This document shows positions 775 to 14,246 of a DNA stretch of 14,246 bases, one piece after another. The position numbers and the translations under genes were made by a program. The notes beneath the pieces were generated by a model, which saw nothing but the letters and a program-made list of their open reading frames with translations, was not told where the DNA came from and ran no database searches. The stretch is taken from IMG/VR virus record IMGVR_UViG_2541047787_000008; one strand, written 5' to 3'. The stretch is from a virus. Its lineage: Duplodnaviria; Heunggongvirae; Uroviricota; Caudoviricetes. Within the stretch, counting starts at the first letter, position 1; the number at the start of each line of letters is the position of its first letter.

Positions 775-975
775 CTAATCTTTCGGATAGATATCCGGTC
801 TTAAGTCAGATTTCGTAATTGCACCTGACGTGCATTGCTCAAGTTTTTTAGCCAGCACAAAACTGGCTTTTTTATAGCCATTGAAAACCAGCCGTAAGTA
901 GCCAGGTGTTGAGCCAACTTTTCCGGCCAACTCGCCCTGCTGTTCTTTGGTTAAAGAGTCCCAATACGCTTTCAT
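775..975 (-). CDS. Cro-like HTH regulator (YdaS-like), about 66 aa
   Basis: The ORF-track frame 775..1278 is open further upstream, but the plausible start is the ATG at 975..973 with GGAGGT about 10 nt upstream on the minus strand. Product MKAYWDSLTKEQQGELAGKVGSTPGYLRLVFNGYKKAS... has a helix-turn-helix-like core. It is divergent from the repressor gene. Confidence 0.65.
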   Translation of the reverse strand: MKAYWDSLTKEQQGELAGKVGSTPGYLRLVFNGYKKASFVLAKKLEQCTSGAITKSDLRPDIYPKD

Positions 976-1065: not shown

Positions 1066-1740
1066 ATGAAAACAATCCATGACATCCGGCGGTCTAACGC
1101 CAGAAAACTGAGAGATGGTGTTGGCGGGAATTCTTCCTTTGCCACTATGATTGATCGCGAGCCAACCCAGACCAGCAGGTTTATGGGAGATGGTGCTACT
1201 AAAAATATCGGTGACAGCATGGCACGACACATCGAAAAATGTTTCGACCTGCCTGTCGGATGGCTCGATCAAGAACACCAGACAACGAACATCACAAAAA
1301 AACCTGATGTTTCAATCACTAATAAACAAATCACATTAGTCCCTGTCATATCATGGGTACAGGCCGGAGCATGGAAAGAAGTTGGATATTCTGAGGTTGA
1401 TTTGAGCACAGCAGAAACGTATCCCTGCCCTGTACCCTGTGGGGAAATGACTTATATCTTGCGGGTGATAGGTGATTCAATGATTGATGAGTACCGCCCG
1501 GGAGACATGATTTTTGTCGATCCTGAAGTACCTGCCTGCCACGGTGACGACGTTATTGCATTGATGCACGATACAGGTGAAACCACCTTCAAAAGGTTGA
1601 TAGAAGATGGGACACAGCGTTATCTCAAAGCGTTAAACCCAAACTGGCCTGAGCCTTACATTAAGATCAACGGTAATTGCTCTATAATTGGTACAGTGAT
1701 TTTCTCAGGAAAACCAAGAAGATACAAAATCAAAGCCTAA
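1066..1740 (+). CDS. CI-like phage repressor with C-terminal S24 (LexA-type) autopeptidase domain
   Basis: 224-aa ORF. C-terminal region has the Ser/Lys dyad context (VIGDSM ... TFKRL) and a candidate Ala-Gly autocleavage site (VQAGAW). No Shine-Dalgarno before the ATG, consistent with a leaderless transcript as for lambda cI. Confidence 0.8.
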   Translation: MKTIHDIRRSNARKLRDGVGGNSSFATMIDREPTQTSRFMGDGATKNIGDSMARHIEKCFDLPVGWLDQEHQTTNITKKPDVSITNKQITLVPVISWVQAGAWKEVGYSEVDLSTAETYPCPVPCGEMTYILRVIGDSMIDEYRPGDMIFVDPEVPACHGDDVIALMHDTGETTFKRLIEDGTQRYLKALNPNWPEPYIKINGNCSIIGTVIFSGKPRRYKIKA

Positions 1741-1752
1741 TCAATGTTTATG

Positions 1753-1776
1753 AACCTGCTTCGGCAGGTTTTTTTA
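1753..1776 (+). terminator. Intrinsic terminator downstream of the repressor gene
   Basis: Stem aacctgc / gcaggtt with loop ttcg, followed by a run of T residues, 13 nt after the repressor stop codon. Confidence 0.7.
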
Positions 1777-1779
1777 TAC

Positions 1780-1812
1780 TTGACAATGTACCCTTGAGAT
1801 ACATAATGTACC
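1780..1812 (+). promoter_or_regulatory. pL-like early-left promoter with overlapping operator repeats
   Basis: TTGACA at 1780..1785, 16-nt spacer, CATAAT at 1802..1807. The 8-bp direct repeat aatgtacc occurs at 1785..1792 and 1805..1812, sharing the TGTACC half-site of the cro/cI operators. Confidence 0.65.
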
Positions 1813-1933
1813 TAAGCGAAACAACGAACAGGCAGGACGCCCACGAAGTAGCCGCCTGGGGCATATGAAGTCCAGGATGATTCGTTGAGTCATGTTGTGC
1901 CACTAGGCACTCATGTTAAAGCAGGTGTATGAA

Positions 1934-2209
1934 ATGAAAGTCCAGATTTTAAACAATAACTGTGAAGTCGTTTGGTCATACGACATAGCCGCCCCTGTAG
2001 ATCAGAGCGGCGATAGCTGGACCAATGGGAAACATCAGATTATGGCTGGAGTTGTGTTCTCTTTACGCCGTGCTTTGGAACAGGCTGAAGTATTTCCATC
2101 AGACCCTGAATGGAAATGGCCTTTTTCTATTTGTCCAAATTCGGAGAGCACATTTCAGAAAATTGGTCAGAAAGTCGCACTCGAAGAGCATCAGCCAACT
2201 GTTTCCTGA
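1934..2209 (+). CDS. Hypothetical small protein, first ORF downstream of the pL-like promoter (uncertain; overlaps the next feature)
   Basis: In-frame ATG at 1934 with AGGTG 6 nt upstream; the track ORF begins at 1913. Overlaps the convergent minus-strand ORF by 83 nt, so at most one is likely real over the shared stretch. Confidence 0.3.
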   Translation: MKVQILNNNCEVVWSYDIAAPVDQSGDSWTNGKHQIMAGVVFSLRRALEQAEVFPSDPEWKWPFSICPNSESTFQKIGQKVALEEHQPTVS

Positions 2210-2372
2210 TTTTTTCAGGTAACTCGTCGGCATCGCAGAAACAACAACGCTCGATCATGTTGAAAGCCGATTCGTAGAACTGTTTTTGCTGAGTGTCGCT
2301 GAGACAGGAAAAGAGCGACGTTACGATGATTTTATTAATTGCATTATCAAGTTCTTTTTCATCAAAAGTCAT
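2127..2372 (-). CDS. Hypothetical acidic 81-aa protein (uncertain; convergent with the previous feature)
   Basis: ATG at 2372..2370 preceded on the minus strand by AAGGA with a 7-nt spacer. Protein-like composition; no family recognised. Confidence 0.35.
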   Translation of the reverse strand: MTFDEKELDNAINKIIVTSLFSCLSDTQQKQFYESAFNMIERCCFCDADELPEKIRKQLADALRVRLSDQFSEMCSPNLDK

Positions 2373-2469
2373 TTGATTTTCCTTTTATGTATACGGGCTT
2401 AAAAGGATACCACCGAGCCTGAAGTGGTGAAAAGACAGGCACATAACAGCTAAGTATTTTCAACCTGAG

Positions 2470-2800
2470 AGAATCCTTAGCGTTGTGGTGAATGCGGCTC
2501 AGCGCACGCGGGTTAAGGTTGAGGCTGACAGTCGACCTTCTGTGGATACCCACCCGCCTGGTGTGCAACCTTCGCCAGGCACCGGGAGGCACCCGGCACC
2601 ACAACTTTATGCTGTGTGTAGTCCTGGCGGTACCAGCTTCTACCCTTGCTTCCGGCTGGTACCGCTCTTTTTACAAAACAGAGAAGAGCATCACCGGACG
2701 ACGGGCTCATAACCCAATCCACCGGGGCGGCTGCCACCGCAGGTGTTCTTCTCTGTTTTGTGGAGAAACCAACCGACCTTGCAGGGTCGATATGATGAGG
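2470..2800 (+). other. GC-rich, highly structured non-coding island (candidate ncRNA or terminator/antitermination element)
   Basis: About 63% GC in a hand-counted 60-nt stretch, against roughly 30-45% in flanking sequence. Several perfect stems; ORF-track ORFs here on both strands translate to low-complexity Arg/Pro/Gly-rich strings. The next real start looks like ATG 2810, preceded by GAGGAG. Confidence 0.4.
2627..2672 (+). terminator. Intrinsic-terminator-like hairpin inside the GC-rich island
   Basis: Perfect 11-bp stem gcggtaccagc (2627..2637) / gctggtaccgc (2655..2665) with a 17-nt loop, followed by TCTTTTT at 2666..2672. Confidence 0.55.
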
Positions 2801-2809
2801 AGCAGCAAA

Positions 2810-3172
2810 ATGGCTAGCGAACGCAGTACCAACGTGCAGGAATTTATCGGGGAGCTGGACGGCGGCGTATTTGAAACCAAAATCGGCGCAGTTCTCAGTG
2901 AAGTCGCTTCCGGTGTGATGAACACGAAAACCAAAGGTAAGGTCTCGCTCAACCTGGAAATCGAACCGTTTGATGAGAACCGTGTGAAAATAAAACACAA
3001 ACTCTCATATGTTCGTCCGACTAACCGCGGGAAAATTTCCGAAGAAGACACCACCGAAACGCCGATGTATGTCAATCGCGGTGGTCGCCTGACTATTCTG
3101 CAGGAAGACCAGGGACAATTACTGACTCTTGCCGGTGAACCTGACGGAAAACTCCGCGCAGCAGGTCATTAA
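2810..3172 (+). CDS. Hypothetical phage early protein, 120 aa (possibly YfdP-like)
   Basis: ATG at 2810 with GAGGAG 7 nt upstream; the 226-aa track ORF 2492..3172 is the same frame extended through the GC-rich region. YfdP assignment rests only on size and neighbourhood. Confidence 0.7.
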   Translation: MASERSTNVQEFIGELDGGVFETKIGAVLSEVASGVMNTKTKGKVSLNLEIEPFDENRVKIKHKLSYVRPTNRGKISEEDTTETPMYVNRGGRLTILQEDQGQLLTLAGEPDGKLRAAGH

Positions 3173-3237: not shown

Positions 3238-4062
3238 ATGTCTCAGAACTTAGACGCAACCGCAATTAATCAAATCCATGCCCTTATTTCTGCTCAGGGT
3301 GTTAATGAAATTATCAGTAAGATTGGTGCCGACGCAGTGGCATTACCTGAAAATTTCCGCATTCATGATCTGGAAAAATTTAATTTAAATCGCTTCCGTT
3401 TCCGTGGTGCGCTTTCCACTGCCAGCATCGATGACTTTACCCGTTATTCTAAAGATCTTGCGGATGAAGGCACCCGCTGCTTTATCGATGCCGATAATAT
3501 GCGTGCCGTCAGTGTGCTTAACCTGGGTACTATTGATGAGCCTGGTCACGCAGATAACACCGCCACTCTCAAACTGAAAAAGACAGCACCGTTCTCTGCT
3601 CTGTTGTCTGTTAACGGCGAGCGTAACTCCCAGAAGTCACTGGCAGAATGGATTGAAGACTGGGCCGACTACCTTGTGGGCTTTGATGCTAATGGTGATG
3701 CCATTCAGGCAACAAAAGCGGCTGCGGCAGTCCGTAAAATCACGATTGAAGCAAACCAGACCGCTGATTTTGAAGACAATGACTTCAGCGGCAAACGCTC
3801 CCTGATGGAGTCTGTCGAAGCGAAGACCAAAGATATTATGCCAGTGACATTTGAATTTAAATGCGTTCCGTTTGAAGGCCTGAAAGAACGTCCGTTTAAA
3901 TTACGCCTCAGCATTATCACTGGCGATCGTCCTGTACTGGTTCTGCGCATTATTCAGCTGGAAGCAGTGCAGGAAGAAATGGCTAACGAATTTCGTGATC
4001 TGCTTGTTGAGAAATTCAAGGACAGCAAAGTAGAAACCTTTATTGGTACTTTTACCGCCTGA
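3238..4062 (+). CDS. Phage protein of the YfdQ / DUF2303 type, 274 aa
   Basis: Clean ORF with GAGGA 8 nt upstream of the ATG. Length and position next to an HD hydrolase match the yfdP-yfdQ-yfdR module of the K-12 CPS-53/KplE1 prophage. Family call is from memory, not a search. Confidence 0.7.
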
Positions 4063-4189
4063 TTTCATTACTGCAAATGCCCCTGCGGGGGCATTTATGG
4101 AAACGTAATTGACTCAATAATCGCCGGATGGTGAGGGCTTTCTTTTACCAGAATTCAGCGCGGTGCAGCGCATATACGTGGAGAACAAA

Positions 4190-4714
4190 ATGTCATTTAT
4201 TAAAACTTTTTCCGGGAAGCATTTTTATTATGACAGGATAAATAAAGACGACATCGTTATTAACGATATCGCGGTTTCTCTTTCAAATATCTGTCGCTTT
4301 GCAGGACATCTTTCACATTTCTACAGCGTCGCCCAACATGCGGTGCTTTGCAGCCAACTGGTACCGCAGGAATTTGCTTTTGAAGCGTTAATGCATGATG
4401 CAACAGAAGCGTATTGCCAGGACATCCCGGCGCCACTGAAACGCCTTCTTCCTGACTATAAACGGATGGAAGAAAAAATAGACGCCGTAATCCGTGAGAA
4501 ATACGGGTTACCCCCGGTTATGAGTACGCCCGTGAAATATGCCGATCTCATCATGCTGGCAACCGAACGCCGCGATCTCGGGCTTGATGATGGCTCTTTC
4601 TGGCCCGTACTGGAAGGTATCCCGGCAACAGAGATGTTCAAAGTTATTCCACTGTCGCCAGGCCATACCTATGGGATGTTTATGGAACGCTTTAAAGAGT
4701 TAACTGAGTCGTAA
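4190..4714 (+). CDS. HD-domain phosphohydrolase (YfdR-like 5'-deoxynucleotidase family)
   Basis: HD-type metal-binding motifs (FAGHLSHFYSVAQH ... LMHDATEAY). Preferred start ATG 4190 with GGAGAA 4 nt upstream; the track ORF starts at 4163. Confidence 0.8.
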   Translation: MSFIKTFSGKHFYYDRINKDDIVINDIAVSLSNICRFAGHLSHFYSVAQHAVLCSQLVPQEFAFEALMHDATEAYCQDIPAPLKRLLPDYKRMEEKIDAVIREKYGLPPVMSTPVKYADLIMLATERRDLGLDDGSFWPVLEGIPATEMFKVIPLSPGHTYGMFMERFKELTES

Positions 4715-4822
4715 AAATCAGCACGTACGAATTCAAACTCTGCCATAAAAGAACATATAAGTAATTTATTAACATATAGATATAGGTTATATTACAAATT
4801 GAAAAATTATTGGAGAGCAACA

Positions 4823-5689
4823 ATGAATCAAAATCCATTCTCATTCTATGACTTTCTTGGATATTTAATACCAGGTGGTTTTTTTATCCTATTAATGTAT
4901 TTCTGTGGTTTGACATTCGATCTAGATATTGTTATTGACTTAAGTGAATTGCTCAGAGGTCAAAGTCAAATCTTTGGCATTTTGAACTACGCTTCAATAG
5001 TTATTATATCTTATATAGCTGGACATTTTATTTCTATCACGTCAGCATTTTTTATCGAAAAATACATGAATAAAGAATTAGGATATCCTTCCAAATATCT
5101 ATTTAAAAAATTGATAGATACCTCAGAAAGCATTTGTAGCCCATCATGCGATGAGAGAAGCGCTGATAAAAAAACAAAAATAAAGAATCGCATAATCAAA
5201 TGCGTATTATGTCCAATAATACTATGGGATTTTATAACACAAAAACTATGTTATTCTCAATCTCTACCATTTCATTTAGCTAATACAACATGGTTAATGA
5301 TCAAAGAAGGTTATGAGAAAAAGTTCATAACAAATCGCCAATTATTACAAGATAAAAACGGACTTGATGATGATCTCTTCAGATTGGCATATCATTATGT
5401 TTATGAGTTTTCAAAACAACATCAAACAAAAATTCAAAACTATGTTGCATTATATGGTTTTTGCAGAAACATATGTTTAATCTTTATAATTTCATTTTGG
5501 GTATCAGTTCCAACCTTTATTTATCGATTATGTACTCATAGTGATTATCTTTATAGTTTACTTTCAATAATGCTTAGCTTTTTCTTCGTCTATGTTTTCT
5601 ATGTTGGTTTTGTTAAATTTTATAGAAGATATACTTTAGAAGTATTAATGGCATTTGCTGTACTTCAAAGTAACGACACTATTCGTTAA
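4823..5689 (+). CDS. AT-rich hypothetical membrane protein in the slot between the early-left genes and xis
   Basis: Preferred start ATG 4823 with GGAG 7 nt upstream (track start 4799). About 28-35% GC in two hand-counted 60-nt stretches. Two hydrophobic helices at the N-terminus and two at the C-terminus flank a hydrophilic Cys-containing middle (CSPSC ... CVLCP). No family recognised. Confidence 0.75.
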   Translation: MNQNPFSFYDFLGYLIPGGFFILLMYFCGLTFDLDIVIDLSELLRGQSQIFGILNYASIVIISYIAGHFISITSAFFIEKYMNKELGYPSKYLFKKLIDTSESICSPSCDERSADKKTKIKNRIIKCVLCPIILWDFITQKLCYSQSLPFHLANTTWLMIKEGYEKKFITNRQLLQDKNGLDDDLFRLAYHYVYEFSKQHQTKIQNYVALYGFCRNICLIFIISFWVSVPTFIYRLCTHSDYLYSLLSIMLSFFFVYVFYVGFVKFYRRYTLEVLMAFAVLQSNDTIR

Positions 5690-5730: not shown

Positions 5731-5937
5731 ATGCTGAACCTCGATTGTGTTCCTATCTCAACTTATTGCAAAGAAACTGGCGAAACTCCTGAAGCAATAA
5801 ACAAACGTGTACAGCGCGGTGTTTGGCGTGAAGGTGTTCAGGTTTTAAAGGTTGAAGGCGTTAAGGAGAGGTGGATTGATCTTAGTGAGGTTGCAAAATG
5901 GGCCAGACAAAACTGCTCAAACTACCGCGCGGCGTAA
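5731..5937 (+). CDS. xis: Excisionase-like protein (Xis), about 68 aa
   Basis: Small basic ORF immediately upstream of int and overlapping it by about 40 nt, as in lambda. Preferred start ATG 5731 with GGAGAAA upstream; the track ORF starts at 5692. Confidence 0.65.
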   Translation: MLNLDCVPISTYCKETGETPEAINKRVQRGVWREGVQVLKVEGVKERWIDLSEVAKWARQNCSNYRAA

Positions 5938-7073
5938 CAATCAGGAAACACCGCCAGGGAGAAACGATCAATATAACTTTCACCTACAAAGGAGTTAGAT
6001 GTCGTGAGCCGCTTTCCAATCTGGAAGTAACACCAAAGAACATTAAATACGCCGAGCGTACACTCGGCGAAATCCATAATAAGATCGAAAGGGGAACATT
6101 CATTTATGCAGAATATTTTCCCCGTTCTGCTCGTTTGAAAATTTTTGGTAATGCTGCTGCAGGCAAAACGGTAAAGATGTACCTGGACGAATATCTTGAA
6201 ATCTGCGAAACAAGAAAACTTTCACCCTCTACGATTGGTGGCTATAAAAAATGCCGTAGTGCGTTAGCCTCACTTCACATTTGCCCTGCAAGTGAATTAA
6301 CACCAGCAACCCTGAAAGCGTGGATTCAAAGCCAGAAAACAACCTTAAAAACCATTCGCAACCAGTTATCTTTCCTACGGTCAGCACTTGATGAAGCCGT
6401 GACCGATGGGGTACTTCAAATTAACCCCGTATCGTTAGTAACAGCTTCGCGCTACCAAAGTGATAAGTCAGAAGCAGAAAGCAGCTATGTGGTTGATCCG
6501 CTATCACCAGCAGAAGTTGATGCATTACTAGCAGCAGCCGGAAACAAACAATGGGAAAATCTGTTCCGGTTCGCCATACATACAGGCCTGCGTAGTTCTG
6601 AATTATGTGCCCTACGATGGCATGATATCGACTTTGTTGGAAAAACAGCCCATGTTCAGAGCGCAAGTGTTGTCGGAGTTATCAAAGGAACAAAGACAAA
6701 AGCCGGTACCCGTAAAGTTGAACTGACTGAAGAAGCAATGTTGGCGTTGATAAACCAGAAGCCATTTACATTCATGAAGGATGCTACTGTCTTTGAAGAT
6801 CCAAAGACCAATAAACCCTGGGCAAGTGCTGATGCAATTAGGAAAAAAGCATGGGTGCCAACATTGCGAAAAGCAGGTATTCGTTACAGAAACCCATATC
6901 AAACCAGGCATACATTCGCCACCAGCCATATCAGCCGTGGTGCGAACCTGTTCTGGCTTGCAGGCCAGATGGGCCATAAGGGACCAGAAATGCTATTTCG
7001 TCACTATGGCAGTTACCTTGCTGCATATGACGGACATACCGCTAAAAATACTAATGATACAAAACAGGCTTGA
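5898..7073 (+). CDS. int: Phage integrase, tyrosine recombinase family
   Basis: 391-aa ORF with GAGG 7 nt upstream of the ATG. Catalytic-domain motifs are visible: HTGLRSSELCALRW (Arg box), QTRHTFATSH, MGHKG, and the terminal FRHYGSY with the candidate catalytic Tyr. Confidence 0.9.
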   Translation: MGQTKLLKLPRGVTIRKHRQGETINITFTYKGVRCREPLSNLEVTPKNIKYAERTLGEIHNKIERGTFIYAEYFPRSARLKIFGNAAAGKTVKMYLDEYLEICETRKLSPSTIGGYKKCRSALASLHICPASELTPATLKAWIQSQKTTLKTIRNQLSFLRSALDEAVTDGVLQINPVSLVTASRYQSDKSEAESSYVVDPLSPAEVDALLAAAGNKQWENLFRFAIHTGLRSSELCALRWHDIDFVGKTAHVQSASVVGVIKGTKTKAGTRKVELTEEAMLALINQKPFTFMKDATVFEDPKTNKPWASADAIRKKAWVPTLRKAGIRYRNPYQTRHTFATSHISRGANLFWLAGQMGHKGPEMLFRHYGSYLAAYDGHTAKNTNDTKQA

Positions 7074-8704: not shown

Positions 8705-11700
8705 TCAGAACGACCAGTTCACACCAGCTACCCCGTTCCACGGGGATTCCACACCGGCACCATGGCTATACCCCACCCCAAGATGCCCGCTTAACGTACT
8801 GCTGAATGAGGCTTTAATACCTGCCTGGTATATTCCACGTCTGCCCGACAAATCATTGACGAAATTACCGTCACTATTCACTTTCACCCGGTTATCATCG
8901 ACAAATTCTTTGCGCACAGCCGCCTTCAGCCACGGCTCAACTTCCATACCGTTCCCCAGACGCATGTTGTAACTCAGCGTTGCACCCAGTTCACGATATA
9001 AACTGCGGGTATCGACTGATTTCGATTCCATGCCATTGGATAAATGATATTCAGGGTTATCAGCGGTGAACCCCCGTTAACGATGCATACGGCGTCAGGT
9101 TCCAGTTACCATCGGTAAATCGCATCCCGGTTTCAATGTGACCGCCCAGCCCGTAGCTGCGATAACTGCCGTTGGCGGCTCCACCGCTGCCAACCGTGGA
9201 GTCGCGAGCTTCGGTACCTGCTAATACCAATAAATTACCGCCATTTTCCAGCAACATATTGGTCGCTAAATTGCCGGAAATGGAAAAAGTGCCGTACTGG
9301 TGAGTACCGCTGATTTCAATACCGTTAGCCGTGCTCGTCTGGAGAGCGGCACCGCTGTTCTGGACGATATCTGTCGCTTTGCCATTATCGTTAACTGTCA
9401 GCGTACCGCCTTCATTGATCTTTGTTTTTATTGCCTCTCCGTTAGCTGAAACTGTTTGTATTCCGCCGTCGTTAATCGTTGTCTCATTCGCCACCCCCTC
9501 GACGATTTGTTCGCCGCCGGTGAGCGTCGTGCCTGTCGCAGTGGCTTTTGTTTTGACGATCTCCCGTCCGCCCGTATTGACCTGTGTTTTGTCAGAAGAG
9601 GTGTCTGACTCCACGGTTAACACGCCGCCATTTGCCAGCAGGATATTGTTCGCCGCACCCTGCTCGATGCTGAACGCGACGCCATCCGCGCGTGTTCCTG
9701 TGACCCGCGTCGCCCTGGTGGTTGCAACCAAAGCGCCCTGGCTACTCTGCTGTATCCCCGTTGCGCTGCCTTTCTCCCGCACATCGAGTGTGCCGCCGTC
9801 ATTAAGCACCGAGTTTTCAGCCAGACCGCCCTCATTAACTACCTGTGAACACCCATTAATAATGGAACCTTCCGCTATCCCGTTTGCCATAATTTGTTGT
9901 AGGCCAGAGACGATATCGGTATTGATCGCCTTACCATAATTCTGAACGGTTTGTGTGCCGCCATTGATGTGCGTTTTGTCAGTTGACCCACCATCAACAA
10001 TTTGTTCACCACTTTCAATATTTGCCTCAGTGGCTAAACCATATACCGTTTGCTTGCCACCTTTGATATTTGCTTTATCAGAAGTGGCACTGGCATATAT
10101 TGTTTGGGTGCCAGCACTATTAAGTACAGTGCCAACATCTTTTCCATAAACATCCATTTTGCCGTTGGCATTAATAATCGTATCAACTGCCCGGGAACCA
10201 GTGACGACTGTTAATGAGCCAGCGTTTTCCAGCACTACATTTTTAGCTTCTGAATTCCTGATGTAGAAAGCATCACCATAACTGTTGGTTCCTTCGATAA
10301 GGGTTCCGGAAGTTGTGGAAGCAATTAATGCGCCGCCGGATTGTTGCTCAACATGCTTAGCCTCACCACCGTCCTGAACCTCCAGAACGCCACCATTATT
10401 AAGTCTGGTGGTATCTGTTTTAGCCTCCTTCTGGACAATCAGCTTACCGCCAGCATCAACGGTAGTATTTTTCGCCGAGGTTTTAGCCACTACCGTCAGT
10501 TCGCCGGTATTTTCCAGCACAACATAATTAGCCTCCCCTCCGGTAATAGTGAAGTGAGAGAGCTTGTTGTATCCTTCAATATCAGTCCCTGCGCCCGTGT
10601 TGGCAACTAAAGCACTGCCCGTCTCCTGGTTAACCCCATGTGCAATACCGCCGGTATAGACAATCAGCGAGCCTCCGGCGCTAATATTGCTGCCAATTGC
10701 CGTACCATCTTTCTCAACAACTTGCTGGCTCCCGGAGGATATAATTGTTGTGTCAGCTTTCCCACCGCTTTTGATATTTTGCGTTCCGCTGTTGATATTG
10801 GTGCCTGTGGCTATGCCATAATTATTAAGATTCTGTGTGCCACCATTAATTATGGTATTTGTCGCGTTTCCTGCAACATCCATAACCCCGCCATTATCTA
10901 TTCGGGTCGCATCAGCTTTAGCATTCGTTAAAACTGACATTGTTCCTTTATCTTTAATAATCGTCTTGTTTGCGGAATGAGATACTTCTAAATGGCCTCC
11001 ATTTTCCAGCAACACATTGTCTTCCACTTTATTGTGGATGGAGAATGCACCTTCACTATTCGTACCGCTCACCGTCGTACCGTTAGTGTTTGTTTTTAAA
11101 ATTGCACCATCGTGCTGGGTAACATTTGTTGCCGTACCACCACTAACATCAAGCACGCCACCGGAATAAACTTCAATAACATCCGAGGTGCTGGTGTTAT
11201 CAACAATTTGCGTGCCACCAGAATAGATCTGCGTAATTTTTGCCGTTGACTTACTATTCAGAGACTGAGTTCCGCCTTCAATCGTCGTGTCCAGCGCACG
11301 GCTCTCATATACTCTTTGCTCACCGCCATTTTTAATGGTTGTTGTTTCTACTGTGCTCTGTTCAACATACTGTCGACCACCATTTATGGTTGTGTTCGTT
11401 GCCAGACTTCCTTGTACTACGTCCTGAGAGCCAGACTTATTTATCGTTGTACCATCAGCATGCCCTTGAACTTTTACTATCTGGCTACCACCATCAATGA
11501 GTATTCCATTCGCACTCCCTCCCTCTACGCGTGAAGCACCGCCCTTAATTGTCGTTCCATTGCTGATACCCCCTTTATAAACGTCCTGATTGCCACTCTC
11601 GATTGTCGTACCTGTGGAAATACCCCCGTCATGAATTGACTGTCTGCCACCGTTAATGGTTGTATTATTAGCCTGCCCCACAAAATTGTTATGACTTCCT

Positions 11701-11969
11701 ATATCTTGATATCCACCAGATTCAATAAGACTTCCATTAGATACCCCGCCATGAACATTCTGCTGGTCATGGTTGATAATATGAGTGTTATTTGTTGTAC
11801 CTCGTTCATCCACTTTTTGGTTGCCATCTACAGTCTCATCGTTTACCACACCAATAACATCAGGAGTGAAGGCCGCCATACCGGGCGGGGCATATATCAA
11901 GGCAGATATCAATAAGGAAAGTACTGAGCGGCGACAATAATGGGGACTGGTCCTGTTCATAAATTTCAT
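8705..11969 (-). pseudogene. AIDA-I-type autotransporter adhesin, disrupted by a frameshift near the passenger/translocator junction
   Basis: The 1009-aa track ORF 9060..12089 carries a signal peptide (MKFMNRTSPHYCRRSVLSLLISALIYAPPGMAA) and passenger repeats; the track ORF 8705..9031 in another frame ends in the autotransporter C-terminal motif ...GVNWSF. The two frames join across a C5 run (plus strand 9071..9075). Start chosen at the signal-peptide Met (11969 or 11960), not the track start. Confidence 0.75.
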
Positions 11970-12298
11970 CCTCTGAAAAGTGAATACTGAGTAGCGTTTA
12001 AGCGACCTTAGCTCTGCTGCAACATCAGCCCACAGGCACCAGACCAGGGGATTCATCCTGAAGAGACAGCGCAAGTGTATTGTGTTCACCGCTCATCAAA
12101 GACATCATGATGAAATGATGATATTCCACATAAGAAAGAAGCATTTTTTAAACGCAGTGCGCTGAAGTATGGTTGGATAAAAAAGTCAATCTATTCAGGG
12201 AATACGGGGGTATTCTTTTCTTTCGACAATCAGGTCGTCGGCAAAATAAAATGATTTACATAATCGTTTCTGATGAATATCTTCTGCTCACATAAAAA

Positions 12299-12872: not shown

Positions 12873-14246
12873 TCATTGAAAACTGCTTTTAGAACTTGAT
12901 ACAACGGGACTAGTCACAACAGGACTATTCTCAACGGGATCATCCTCAGAGGAACTATCATCAAAGTCATCATCCATAAATAAAATATCATCGAATGGTG
13001 CCACGCCCGTGATGAGTTTTATTTTATTATTACGATCAGTCAAGACTCCACTTAAACCGTTTTCGCTCACAGGTTTTAATGATTTTTCATTACTCTTGTT
13101 GTAAGCAGGCGCATTAAAAATACACGGAGTATCAAGATCAAACAATGACGTTCCCCAGTTCACATATTGAATATCATAGTTACTGAAGTTCTGTCCAGAA
13201 AAGAAGCATCCCTTAAAATCCAATCCACCTAAATTATATAAACCATCCTCTTCTTTTTGGAGAGTAATGTTAATTTTGGCTATCTCCCGGACATCATCGC
13301 CATTTTTATATTTGAATACCGTTTCAAGATTTTCCCCACACAGTTTGACTTCTGGAAATAATTTGAAATCAAAGCCTATATTATTATGTATCAACGTAGA
13401 TGAACAAAAGATGGAGAAAGCTTGCAGTGCTGAATTATAGCTTTCGATTTTATCCTGAGGCTGCGCTCTTGGTAAAAACTCATAGCAACATTCATAAAAA
13501 TTAAGTAGAAACTCTGAAGACCTTCCATTTTTATCAAATAATATCCCCTTGAACTCATTCACAAACGCATCTTTTTTTTCTTGAATATCTATGGGGTGTT
13601 CCTTTGACTCTGACAAAGATGAAATCTCATCTATTTTGTTTTCATATGAATTACGTGATTCCATACAGACATTTGGCGGCGTTTCTAAAATAACACTACG
13701 CGTACTACTTGGCTTAAGTAAACCAACATGAAAATCACTTTTTCTTATATTATCGAAAAGGTTCTGTTCATTTCTTTTAGCGCATTCAAAAAACTGATCG
13801 GCATTATTTTTATTCGATAATTTTTTAGTTTCAGAAAACACATTTTCATTGTTTTCCAGCTTTAGTTTAATGAGAAGATTTTCCCAGACCTGCTTGCTTA
13901 AACATATTACGTCAGGCTCACCAGAACTAACTAACTCGTGATTATTATTAAAGTGTACGTTGAATACCTTTAAGTTATTTTCACCAACTTCATATTTAAT
14001 ACGTTTTAATTGTTCTCCAGCTCCCATAATGACAAAGGCGTTGCCTTCTTGATATATACATTCAGACATCATTTTTTGTAAAGTTTCAAGAGCACCGCGA
14101 TACGTCTCTGATGCAGCTTCCTTACAAATTAATTTTAAAATACTATGAGCTAGTAGCTCCATGTGTTTAGAAGATTTATTTTCATTATAACTTCCACTAC
14201 CCAAAACTGCGCTAGCGTTAAATCCGTTGCTTTTACTAACTAACAT
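12873..14246 (-). CDS. AT-rich hypothetical protein (at least 457 aa; N-terminus at or beyond the window edge)
   Basis: Long open frame on the minus strand reaching the window end. AT-rich coding sequence, acidic Ser/Asp-rich C-terminal tail. No family recognised with confidence. Confidence 0.65.
   Translation of the reverse strand: MLVSKSNGFNASAVLGSGSYNENKSSKHMELLAHSILKLICKEAASETYRGALETLQKMMSECIYQEGNAFVIMGAGEQLKRIKYEVGENNLKVFNVHFNNNHELVSSGEPDVICLSKQVWENLLIKLKLENNENVFSETKKLSNKNNADQFFECAKRNEQNLFDNIRKSDFHVGLLKPSSTRSVILETPPNVCMESRNSYENKIDEISSLSESKEHPIDIQEKKDAFVNEFKGILFDKNGRSSEFLLNFYECCYEFLPRAQPQDKIESYNSALQAFSIFCSSTLIHNNIGFDFKLFPEVKLCGENLETVFKYKNGDDVREIAKINITLQKEEDGLYNLGGLDFKGCFFSGQNFSNYDIQYVNWGTSLFDLDTPCIFNAPAYNKSNEKSLKPVSENGLSGVLTDRNNKIKLITGVAPFDDILFMDDDFDDSSSEDDPVENSPVVTSPVVSSSKSSFQ

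Follow-up and report, generated by a model that had tools for sequence, protein, structure and literature searches.

An STnc100-type RNA core, an intrinsic terminator and a tRNA-like hairpin form a non-coding module in the early-left operon of an SfV/e14-type prophage

The DNA considered here (IMG/VR virus record IMGVR_UViG_2541047787_000008; 14,246 nucleotides (nt), referred to below as the window) comes from a lambdoid prophage of the SfV/e14 type and represents its immunity and early-left region. Between the open reading frames (ORFs) next to the early-left promoter PL and the early-left genes, where an initial annotation made from the letters alone had placed a structured island, lies a conserved, non-coding RNA module on the + strand. 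It is made up of a core of the STnc100 type, an intrinsic terminator (T1) and, adjoining the terminator, a tRNA-like long hairpin (T2). The features are collected in Table 1; genes were called using the annotations of the phages SfV and vB_EcoM-720R4 together with Pfam and PHROG. A megablast search with positions 2300-2900 matched 63 phage records, including SfV, SfIV, SfII, mEp460 and Stx2-converting phages, and the match to SfV was 97.3% over the full length of the query. The module is co-oriented with the PL operon and lies inside it, the core being located about 670 nt downstream of PL. The latter was assigned as the probable PL because a near-consensus promoter overlaps repeats that are also present in the cro/cI intergenic region. 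No promoter-like site was found between T2 and yfdP in the promoter scan.

Table 1 Features of the window, in order of position
Feature	Position	Strand	Basis or remark
cro	775-975	-	
cI	1066-1740	+	
cI terminator	1752-1771	+	
Probable PL promoter, TTGACA / 16 nt / CATAAT	1780-1807	+	Promoter scan, 11/12 matches
Operator-like repeats overlapping PL	1785-1823		Copies also in the cro/cI intergenic region
orf33	1913-2209	+	PHROG 3195 full-length match, function unknown; no Pfam family
Antisense ORF	2127-2372	-	PHROG 3311 full-length match, function unknown
RNA island	about 2452-2800	+	
Possible extended -10, TGaGAGAAT	2466-2474	+	Start near 2480, foot of helix P1; weak, tentative
Pseudoknotted core	2479-2613	+	RF02076 match, covariation
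Helix P1	2482-2490 with 2597-2605; extension 2479-2481 with 2611-2613	+	
Junction AAU	2491-2493	+	
Helix P2	2494-2498 with 2504-2509	+	A2506 bulged, loop UCAGC
Pseudoknot 5' strand (linker), AAGGUUG	2515-2521	+	Partner CAACCUU in P4 loop
Helix P4	2557-2563 with 2573-2579	+	
Pseudoknot 3' strand, CAACCUU	2566-2572	+	Within P4 loop
Helix P5	2582-2586 with 2592-2596	+	Loop AGGCA
T1, intrinsic terminator	2626-2673	+	Stem 2626-2638/2654-2666 (13 bp), 15-nt loop, U-run 2668-2672
T2, long hairpin with three-way junction	2673-2761	+	Inverted-repeat arms 2673-2697 and 2737-2761
T2 outer stem	2673-2695/2739-2761, extendable to 2668-2692/2742-2766	+	
T2 inner hairpin A	about 2694-2729	+	
Tip of T2 hairpin A, CGGGCUCAUAACCC	2702-2715	+	Three G-C pairs, loop CUCAUAA
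T2 inner hairpin B	2727-2740	+	
Small hairpin CGACCU-UGCA-GGGUCG	2773-2791	+	Just 5' of the yfdP ribosome-binding site; tentative
yfdP Shine-Dalgarno GAGGAG and ATG (2810)	2797-2812	+	Sequence, annotations
yfdP	2810-3172	+	PHROG match; first gene 3' of the island
yfdQ (DUF2303)	3238-4062	+	
HD hydrolase	4163-4714	+	
Low-GC ORF	4799-5689	+	
Integrase	5898-7073	+	

The island differs from its surroundings in composition and in folding strength. The G+C content of 2470-2800 is 57.4% against a mean of 43.4% for the window, which places it at the 99th percentile of 331-nt segments; richer values occur only around 9450-9850. The compositional jump noted initially is therefore real, albeit that the figure then given, about 63%, was an overstatement. 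Folding of the whole island in comparison with shuffled sequences gave z-scores of -6.07 for the + strand and -3.44 for the - strand; the stronger score and the G-U pairs point to the + strand as the RNA strand. An ORF (2492-3172) is open across the island and amounts to an in-frame upstream extension of yfdP by 106 codons. No match to Pfam or PHROG was obtained for the extension (2492-2809), indels of 1 nt and 20 nt separate the homologues over the island in an alignment of relatives, and in a genome that is 100% identical the Prokaryotic Genome Annotation Pipeline (PGAP) labels the stretch 'frameshifted hypothetical protein'; these three observations bear out the earlier statement that no convincing ORF is present. 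Substitutions in the island track base-pairing, not codon positions.

Positions 2452-2674 (+) align to the entire STnc100 model of Rfam (RF02076, positions 1-206 of 206) with a score of 45.1 bits; the E-value is 1.5e-8 when the region is searched and 3.7e-7 when the search covers the whole window. The Rfam scan that had been proposed as a check gave this full-length match in an E-value search; at gathering thresholds nothing was returned for the window, and the RNA is therefore filed as a divergent relative and not as a curated member of the family. Scores below gathering were likewise obtained for SfV (39.5 bits) and, with the core only, for phage P1 (33.4 bits), which probably explains why this subtype has gone unannotated. 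Judged by its sequence, the core is a divergent, 'type B' relative of the STnc100/PasD/EcOnc27 family. STnc100 is a prophage small RNA (sRNA) family, to which a 2026 preprint (Zhu, Shabalina and Storz) relates PasD1 and PasD2, sRNAs seen in enteropathogenic E. coli (EPEC) by RIL-seq, in which interacting RNAs are ligated and sequenced. In enterohaemorrhagic E. coli (EHEC), a copy just downstream of stx2B in an Stx2 phage overlaps EcOnc27/sRNA103, which was seen by Northern blot and by Hfq cross-linking and analysis of cDNA (Hfq-CRAC) (PMC7873438).

The window RNA shares with these relatives, besides the full-length match and the location in a lambdoid prophage, the closing helix, the GGUGAAU junction, the P2 loop, the CCGGG-AGGCA-CCCGG hairpin and the terminator. 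Helix P1 ends in GGUG/CACC with a GAAU junction, as STnc100 requires, and the 5-nt loop of helix P2 is of the UNNGC type. The P5 hairpin (2582-2596) abuts the 3' strand of helix P1 and is followed by CACCACAAC; T1 then follows the core, as a terminator does in most STnc100 copies. Differences are found in P2, which is GCGGC/GCACGC in the window and CCCCC/GGAGGG in the family, and in the central region, which is larger in the window. In addition, the window copy lies in the early-left operon downstream of cI, whereas most relatives lie between Q, methylase or stx genes and esterase or holin genes, and it does not have the strong promoter of its own that type-A copies carry.

Relatives were collected by scanning viral contigs with the most conserved 19-mer, which yielded at least 120 loci, many of them with two to four tandem, mutually divergent cores. 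The 89 distinct cores were reduced to 40 representatives of less than 88% identity, 34 of which were aligned with MAFFT. Over these 34 sequences, 90.9% of the cells are paired in the proposed structure, compared with 78.2% in shuffles and 39.5-45.5% in slid controls, and 108 cells in the core are changed on both sides of a pair as against 38.8 in shuffles. Helix P1 covaries across the set, while helix P2 is paired in 99.4% of cases with three pairs changed on both sides; covariation thus supports the predicted helices P1, P2 and P4. Helix P5 is invariant in the set, which reflects the retrieval of the relatives by that motif; in mEp460, P5 is different. On its own, the nested core is only modestly stable (z -2.29), and the support for it is therefore comparative and not thermodynamic. 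In the initial annotation, loss of the pairings in homologues was to speak against a structured RNA. They are kept, with compensatory changes, and together with the whole-model match to STnc100 these changes support the stable structured non-coding RNA that had been offered as one of two interpretations.

A pseudoknot that goes unmentioned in the 2026 preprint on the structure of the STnc100 family joins the linker, which starts about 20 nt after the AAU junction, to the loop of P4. In 32 of the 40 representatives the two are complementary over at least five pairs, and in a second test 36 of 39 sequences reached this score. The strands keep a fixed position and have mutually unrelated sequences: next to AAGGUUG and CAACCUU in the window, linker and P4 loop read AUCAGCG and UGCUGGU in locus L011, AGACUGACAAA and UUUGUCAGUCU in L021, and GAACUGGCA and UGCCAGUUC in L013. 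Between a linker and its own P4 loop there are 6.4 pairs on average. Exchanging the loop for that of another sequence lowers the mean to 3.9, and shuffling it lowers the mean to 3.75; among 200 shuffles, the largest mean was 4.1. Comparison across relatives thus supports the predicted pairing of linker and P4 loop as a feature of the family. The 5' strand also has an alternative local partner (AAGGUUGA at 2515-2522 with UCGACCUU at 2532-2539), matched in 3 of 200 shuffles; this pairing occurs in some type-B copies including that of the window and is absent in type A.

Cores of other types also occur. That of mEp460 (2340-2490) is a third type in which helix P1, T1 and T2 are kept, P2 is different and P5 reads CCGG-AGAUCAGCA-CCGG; the Rfam model is blind to this type. 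A core still more reduced than that of mEp460 is present in locus L134. The island lies at mosaic joints, as shown by breaks in the homology to other phages near 2410 and 2625. With mEp460, homology breaks off at the latter position, which suggests modular exchange of cores upstream of an unchanging block of T1, T2 and yfdP. Six loci (L019, L027, L081, L286, L287 and L317) carry three or four tandem cores at a spacing of about 220-260 or about 485 nt. The pseudoknot sequence differs from core to core, which gives the impression of arrays of diverged units and not of recent duplications.

T1 has the form of an intrinsic terminator, a G+C-rich hairpin directly followed by a U-run (UCUUUUU). The perfect 11-bp stem with a T-run described initially was confirmed: the inner arms, 2627-2637 and 2655-2665, are 100% complementary over 11 nt, and two wobble pairs extend the stem to 13 bp. 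The hairpin folds with -23.1 kcal/mol (z = -4.95), none of 200 shuffles folds as well, and CUCUUUUUAC comes next. It was missed by a simple terminator scan because its 15-nt loop exceeds the limit of 8 used in the scan. In ST64B the T1 stem consists of another complementary pair (GUCGGCGUC.../...GACGCCGAC), with a loop that is 20 nt larger and the U-run kept. Of 122 family cores, 73 are followed by a hairpin with a U-run according to a crude detector, which overlooked the one present in several other copies.

The boxA-like string CGCTCTTTTTA pointed out in the initial annotation is indeed there, as the T1 3' arm plus U-run, and it is not conserved: its fourth base varies in three aligned relatives, K-12 e14, SfV and ST64B (CGCCCTT, CGTCCTT, CGACCTT). 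The ORF between PL and the island, orf33, has two arginines and no arginine-rich motif of the N type. These observations, together with the single copy and the failure of the RNA to align with put sequences, leave the proposed nut/put-like antitermination element unsupported. A nut site of the lambda type was rejected, as there is no conserved boxA and the 23-bp stem of T2 follows in the place of boxB.

The second long-range stem followed by TTTT also proved correct and is longer than described. In the minimum free energy fold, 23 contiguous pairs (2673-2695/2739-2761) enclose two inner hairpins at -47.5 kcal/mol (z = -6.7); when the U-run of T1 is paired to the conserved GUGGAG, the stem has 25 pairs. 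T2 is flanked by ACAAAAC upstream and GUUUUGU downstream and is nearly symmetric on both strands. The earlier suggestion of tandem terminators thus holds as a description of anatomy, T1 being a classical intrinsic terminator and T2 a long hairpin followed by UUUU, and as anatomy only. No Rfam family matched T2. A second scan of viral contigs yielded at least 120 loci with T2 relatives in 16 sequence clusters, three of which are spurious and AT-rich. With the structure given explicitly, 91.4% of the cells are paired in 14 diverse copies as against 40-45% in slid controls, and 10 pairs are changed on both sides as against 5.3 in shuffles; RNAalifold on the mixed alignment recovered the inner hairpin only, so that the outer stem is confirmed only with the explicit structure. 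Of the 91 distinct T2 copies in viral contigs, 79 follow a T-run, which places T2 typically directly 3' of a terminator. In phage P1, lambda, L189 and L027, a T2-like hairpin lies directly 5' of a core.

At its tip, T2 hairpin A matches the anticodon stem-loop of tRNA-fMet, the E. coli initiator tRNA, without a difference over 14 nt. In a search with a 77-nt tRNA sequence containing this 14-mer, annotated tRNA-Met genes were matched at 100% identity, the median being four such genes in an E. coli genome; we take these to be the initiator tRNA genes. The motif recurs in diverse phages, and its loop is altered to UUAAUAA in K-12 e14, CUCAUUA in ST64B and UUCAUAU in phage P1. ARAGORN detected no tRNA in the window, the Rfam tRNA model gave no match in 2300-2900 even at E-values up to 10, and no T-loop or D-arm consensus is present in T2. 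Part of T2 matches an element of Klebsiella phage GZ7 that directly follows genes for tRNA-Asn and tRNA-Arg. T2 is a separately conserved long hairpin, apparently derived from a tRNA. As far as could be checked, T2, its linkage to the core and the pseudoknot have not been described before.

Three T2-like elements in other phages were looked at individually. The GZ7 element (2003-2080, downstream of Q) has a 7-bp acceptor-like outer stem followed by CCA and resembles a tRNA-like gene that lacks a D-arm and has CAU as its anticodon; ARAGORN does not call it. In the ban operon of phage P1 (L005 2436-2623), a T2-like hairpin is fused to an STnc100-type core directly upstream of tciA; this module has three tRNA genes and a dicF-like region around it, and on the other strand it overlaps the start of the annotated upl gene. 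In lambda (L132 about 985-1110, between tR' and gene S), a T2-like long hairpin comes right after tR' and is followed by a truncated, core-like relic (CCGTTGTGCTGAAT...ACCGGAAGCAGAACCGGATCACC); Rfam detects neither of the two.

A match to 2440-2810 was found in 2780 of 5426 complete E. coli genomes, and among species-representative genomes the complete core is confined to Enterobacterales. Matches of the motif scan in Streptomyces and in various metagenome-assembled genomes lacked the 5' half of the core and were taken as chance. The genes downstream of the family copies encode sialate O-acetylesterases (15 of 60), holins (13), YfdQ-type proteins (5), Kil, GnsAB, TerB, TciA and others; upstream, DNA methylases (11 of 65), Q antiterminators (10), Stx B subunits and repressors are found. 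These neighbours place most copies between late promoter region and lysis genes, in line with the EHEC literature, and the early-left position is that of a minority. In K-12 e14, the module (L130 4001-4358) lies between ymfJ/ymfI and xisE-intE, has a P5 damaged by one deletion and one substitution, and is annotated as the protein gene ymfH; in SfV, ST64B and mEp460 it precedes yfdP. Some phage records annotate small ORFs over the island, on either strand. In many type-A (late-region) relatives, clear -35 and -10 sequences place the +1 at the first base of helix P1, and with the terminator that follows most cores these copies look like independent sRNA genes. The TG of the possible extended -10 in the window is not conserved in K-12, SfV or ST64B, the last of which has GAGAAC. 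The small hairpin at 2773-2791 has an energy that is not significant (z -0.92); K-12 retains it, and ST64B has another complementary pair in its place.

The reading that fits these data best, to which a probability of about 0.55 is given, is that of a prophage sRNA gene followed by a tandem terminator/processing hairpin that would attenuate transcription from PL into yfdP-int. Its first part (2479-2672) would be a structured RNA of some 190 nt in which helix P1 encloses P2, P4 and P5, with the pseudoknot in addition. Transcription from PL, and possibly from the weak promoter at 2466-2474, would mostly end at T1 and free this RNA as a discrete molecule, the U-tail of T1 being the usual site at which Hfq would bind such an sRNA. 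By analogy with the relatives, a number of which were validated as sRNAs by Northern blot and by Hfq-CRAC or RIL-seq (PMC7873438, PMC12711010, bioRxiv 10.64898/2026.05.13.724894), the freed RNA is expected to act in trans on targets with the help of Hfq. Polymerases that pass T1 would transcribe T2, which would then pair with and hide the U-run of T1 in a double-stranded RNA of 23-25 bp. This duplex might serve as a back-up terminator or as a processing site of the RNase III or RNase P type that splits the sRNA from the yfdP-int mRNA; in another system, long-stem terminators were shown to resist processive antitermination (PMC10325885). In combination, the two hairpins T1 and T2 would attenuate yfdP-xis-int or insulate these early-left genes.

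Several points weigh against the sRNA gene with its tandem hairpins. The score of the window copy lies 1.9 bits below the RF02076 gathering score of 47 bits. The promoter of its own is weak or absent and not conserved, so that the making of the 5' end is left unaccounted for, and as yfdP-int have no visible promoter of their own, both T1 and T2 must be read through. The core of phage P1 has no terminator and runs straight into the ribosome-binding site of tciA. A pseudoknotted core of several helices, with P5 constant in the motif-retrieved copies, is more elaborate than a base-pairing sRNA needs and hints at a function other than that. Finally, a role of T2 as terminator or processing site leaves its initiator-tRNA-like loop unexplained.

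An alternative is that the module is chiefly a form of RNA-processing 'punctuation', with T2 as a degenerate tRNA-like element, P1 and P5 stacked like an acceptor and T-arm, and RNase P, RNase III or RNase E cutting the polycistronic early-left transcript into stable pieces of its own. The exact initiator-tRNA anticodon stem-loop in T2 argues for this, as do the position of P5, which adjoins the P1 3' strand in the way a T-arm adjoins an acceptor stem, the GZ7 element with its acceptor-like stem and CCA directly behind two tRNA genes, and the pair of T2 and core among tRNA genes in the ban operon of phage P1. The perfect duplex of T2, at 23-25 bp, satisfies the length requirement of RNase III. 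On the other hand, T2 is recognised neither by ARAGORN nor by the Rfam tRNA model, it has no T-loop or D-arm consensus, and the anticodon-like loop is altered in K-12, ST64B and phage P1, so that processing punctuation is regarded as unlikely. A DNA-level element (a recombination linker, attachment site or origin) whose symmetry mimics RNA structure is a very remote prospect, even though the island lies at mosaic joints and T2 shows near symmetry on both strands: pairing is maintained by compensatory changes as the sequence changes, the G-U pairs work on the + strand only, the pseudoknot has no rationale in DNA, and relatives were detected as RNAs (PMC7873438). Hardly any credence is given to a protein-coding gene, be it an ORF of the K-12 ymfH type or an N-terminal extension of YfdP, as the open frame, the ymfH label and the small ORFs in phage records stand against the missing Pfam and PHROG matches, the indels, the PGAP frameshift and the substitutions that follow pairing.

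Reading through T1 and T2 could itself be what the module controls. In a cis-acting arrangement, the core would modify its own polymerase, as put or EAR elements do, or sense a signal, and in this way set the passage of T1 and T2 and the expression of yfdP-xis-int. A phage without N has to pass two terminator-like hairpins with no promoter downstream of them, a complex conserved fold lies directly before a terminator, the core of phage P1 lies inside an operon directly before a gene, and the alternative partner of the pseudoknot strand in some type-B copies suggests two folds. Nevertheless, the RNA has no similarity to put RNA and is present in one copy per genome (in the window and in the whole SfV genome). 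The complementarity of 2592-2602 to the 5' arm of T1, compared by hand, is a weak match of 7 out of 10 that is absent in ST64B, and the alternative fold is missing from type A. The genes downstream are of diverse kinds (esterases, holins, yfdP/Q, kil, tciA), the form in which relatives accumulate is that of short, terminated RNAs (PMC7873438), and type-A copies, with a constitutive-looking promoter before lysis genes, cannot be always-on antiterminators. Control in cis by the core is consequently considered rather improbable. Similarly low odds are given to the wider proposal that core and T2 together are a cis-acting RNA device of N-less lambdoid phages that decides on read-through, processing or translation start downstream, in which the core would act on polymerase or sense a cellular signal and T2 would engage the initiator-tRNA machinery (the 30S P site/IF3, methionyl-tRNA synthetase or RNase P). 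If that were true, the 'sRNAs' of EHEC, EPEC and Salmonella would be terminated by-products. A riboswitch is considered improbable: no conserved alternative pairing with T1 was found by hand comparison, and the genes downstream form no coherent regulon; one feature expected of a riboswitch, a conserved structured domain directly upstream of a terminator, is present.

Known RNA elements resemble parts of the module to different degrees. The put RNAs of HK022 and HK639 are likewise structured early-left RNAs of N-less lambdoid phages, located upstream of terminators. They are about 70 nt long with two stems and lie immediately after PL, with a second copy after PR (PMC9378689), whereas the window core is pseudoknotted, about 125 nt long, about 670 nt away from PL and single-copy. 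A put RNA was rejected as an identity of the window RNA, because putL and putR of HK022 and putL of HK639 align with each other and not with it. No second copy of the core was found in the PR operon or elsewhere in the window or in the whole SfV genome, and hence there is no partner of the put-R type. The EAR element of Bacillus eps operons is pseudoknotted, about 120 nt long and located inside an operon upstream of terminators, an anatomy similar to that of the window RNA; it belongs to a different phylum, and the window gave no Rfam match to EAR. The operator of thrS is a tRNA anticodon-arm mimic in an mRNA leader. T2 compares with such mimics as an mRNA-embedded hairpin that copies an anticodon stem-loop exactly (that of initiator tRNA, 14 nt) and differs from them in having no link to a synthetase gene and a loop that is not strictly conserved (K-12, ST64B, phage P1). 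The late leader of lambda (PR', 6S RNA, tR') resembles the module in its T2-like long hairpin and truncated core-like sequence after tR', and in EHEC phages 'dyads' of Hfq-sRNAs, with STnc100-type sRNAs among them, are found between the late promoter and the lysis genes (PMC7873438). In contrast, the module of the window has moved to the early-left operon, and the lambda copy is a relic. No antisense partner of the AsxR/AgvB type was matched by Rfam on either strand.

The module has a match in about half of the complete E. coli genomes and occurs in phages such as SfV, ST64B and e14. Annotation pipelines miss it because its score lies just under the Rfam cut-off, and the labels given to it are ymfH, 'hypothetical protein' or 'frameshifted pseudogene'. 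This matters for studies that treat ymfH as a protein, such as the screen for triggers of retron toxins, in which overexpression of ymfH is listed as a trigger of the retron-Sen2 toxin RcaT (10.1101/2020.06.22.160242); the active agent there could be the RNA rather than a protein. The family has so far been discussed in terms of simple Hfq sRNAs of pathogenic E. coli, while the covariation-supported pseudoknot, the multi-helix core and the frequent partner T2 suggest a function beyond base-pairing. One can now also ask directly by what route early-left transcription in N-less lambdoid phages passes terminators and reaches xis and int.

The remaining observations concern the neighbours of the module. 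The orf33 gene and the antisense ORF are convergent with an overlap of 83 nt and correspond to ymfJ and ymfI of e14. For the leftward antisense ORF, the promoter must fall in 2373-2480, adjoining the RNA core, and a hairpin ACCACCGAGCCUGAAGUGGU at 2409-2428, on the upstream homology joint, is terminator-like on the - strand and lies just upstream of the start of this ORF. PADLOC gave nothing on the genes that neighbour the island. The low-GC ORF, located between the HD-hydrolase gene and xis/int, has 296 amino acids and a G+C content of 27-30%; no Pfam family was found for it, and its only PADLOC match is a weak one to Csx27 (E 1.4e-5). Probably, this ORF is cargo that was acquired (a moron gene). 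Past the integrase lie genes for an AIDA-type autotransporter adhesin with 12 repeats and for a DUF5507/DUF5508 protein (9060-12089 and 12873-14246, both on the - strand), which are probably host or island genes beside the end of the prophage. In SfV, an isrK RNA (64.2 bits) directly followed by a C4 antisense RNA (82.3 bits) lies at 27603-27791 inside orf37. This pair is an immunity arrangement of the P1/P7 type in the PR operon, the corresponding region being located outside the window.

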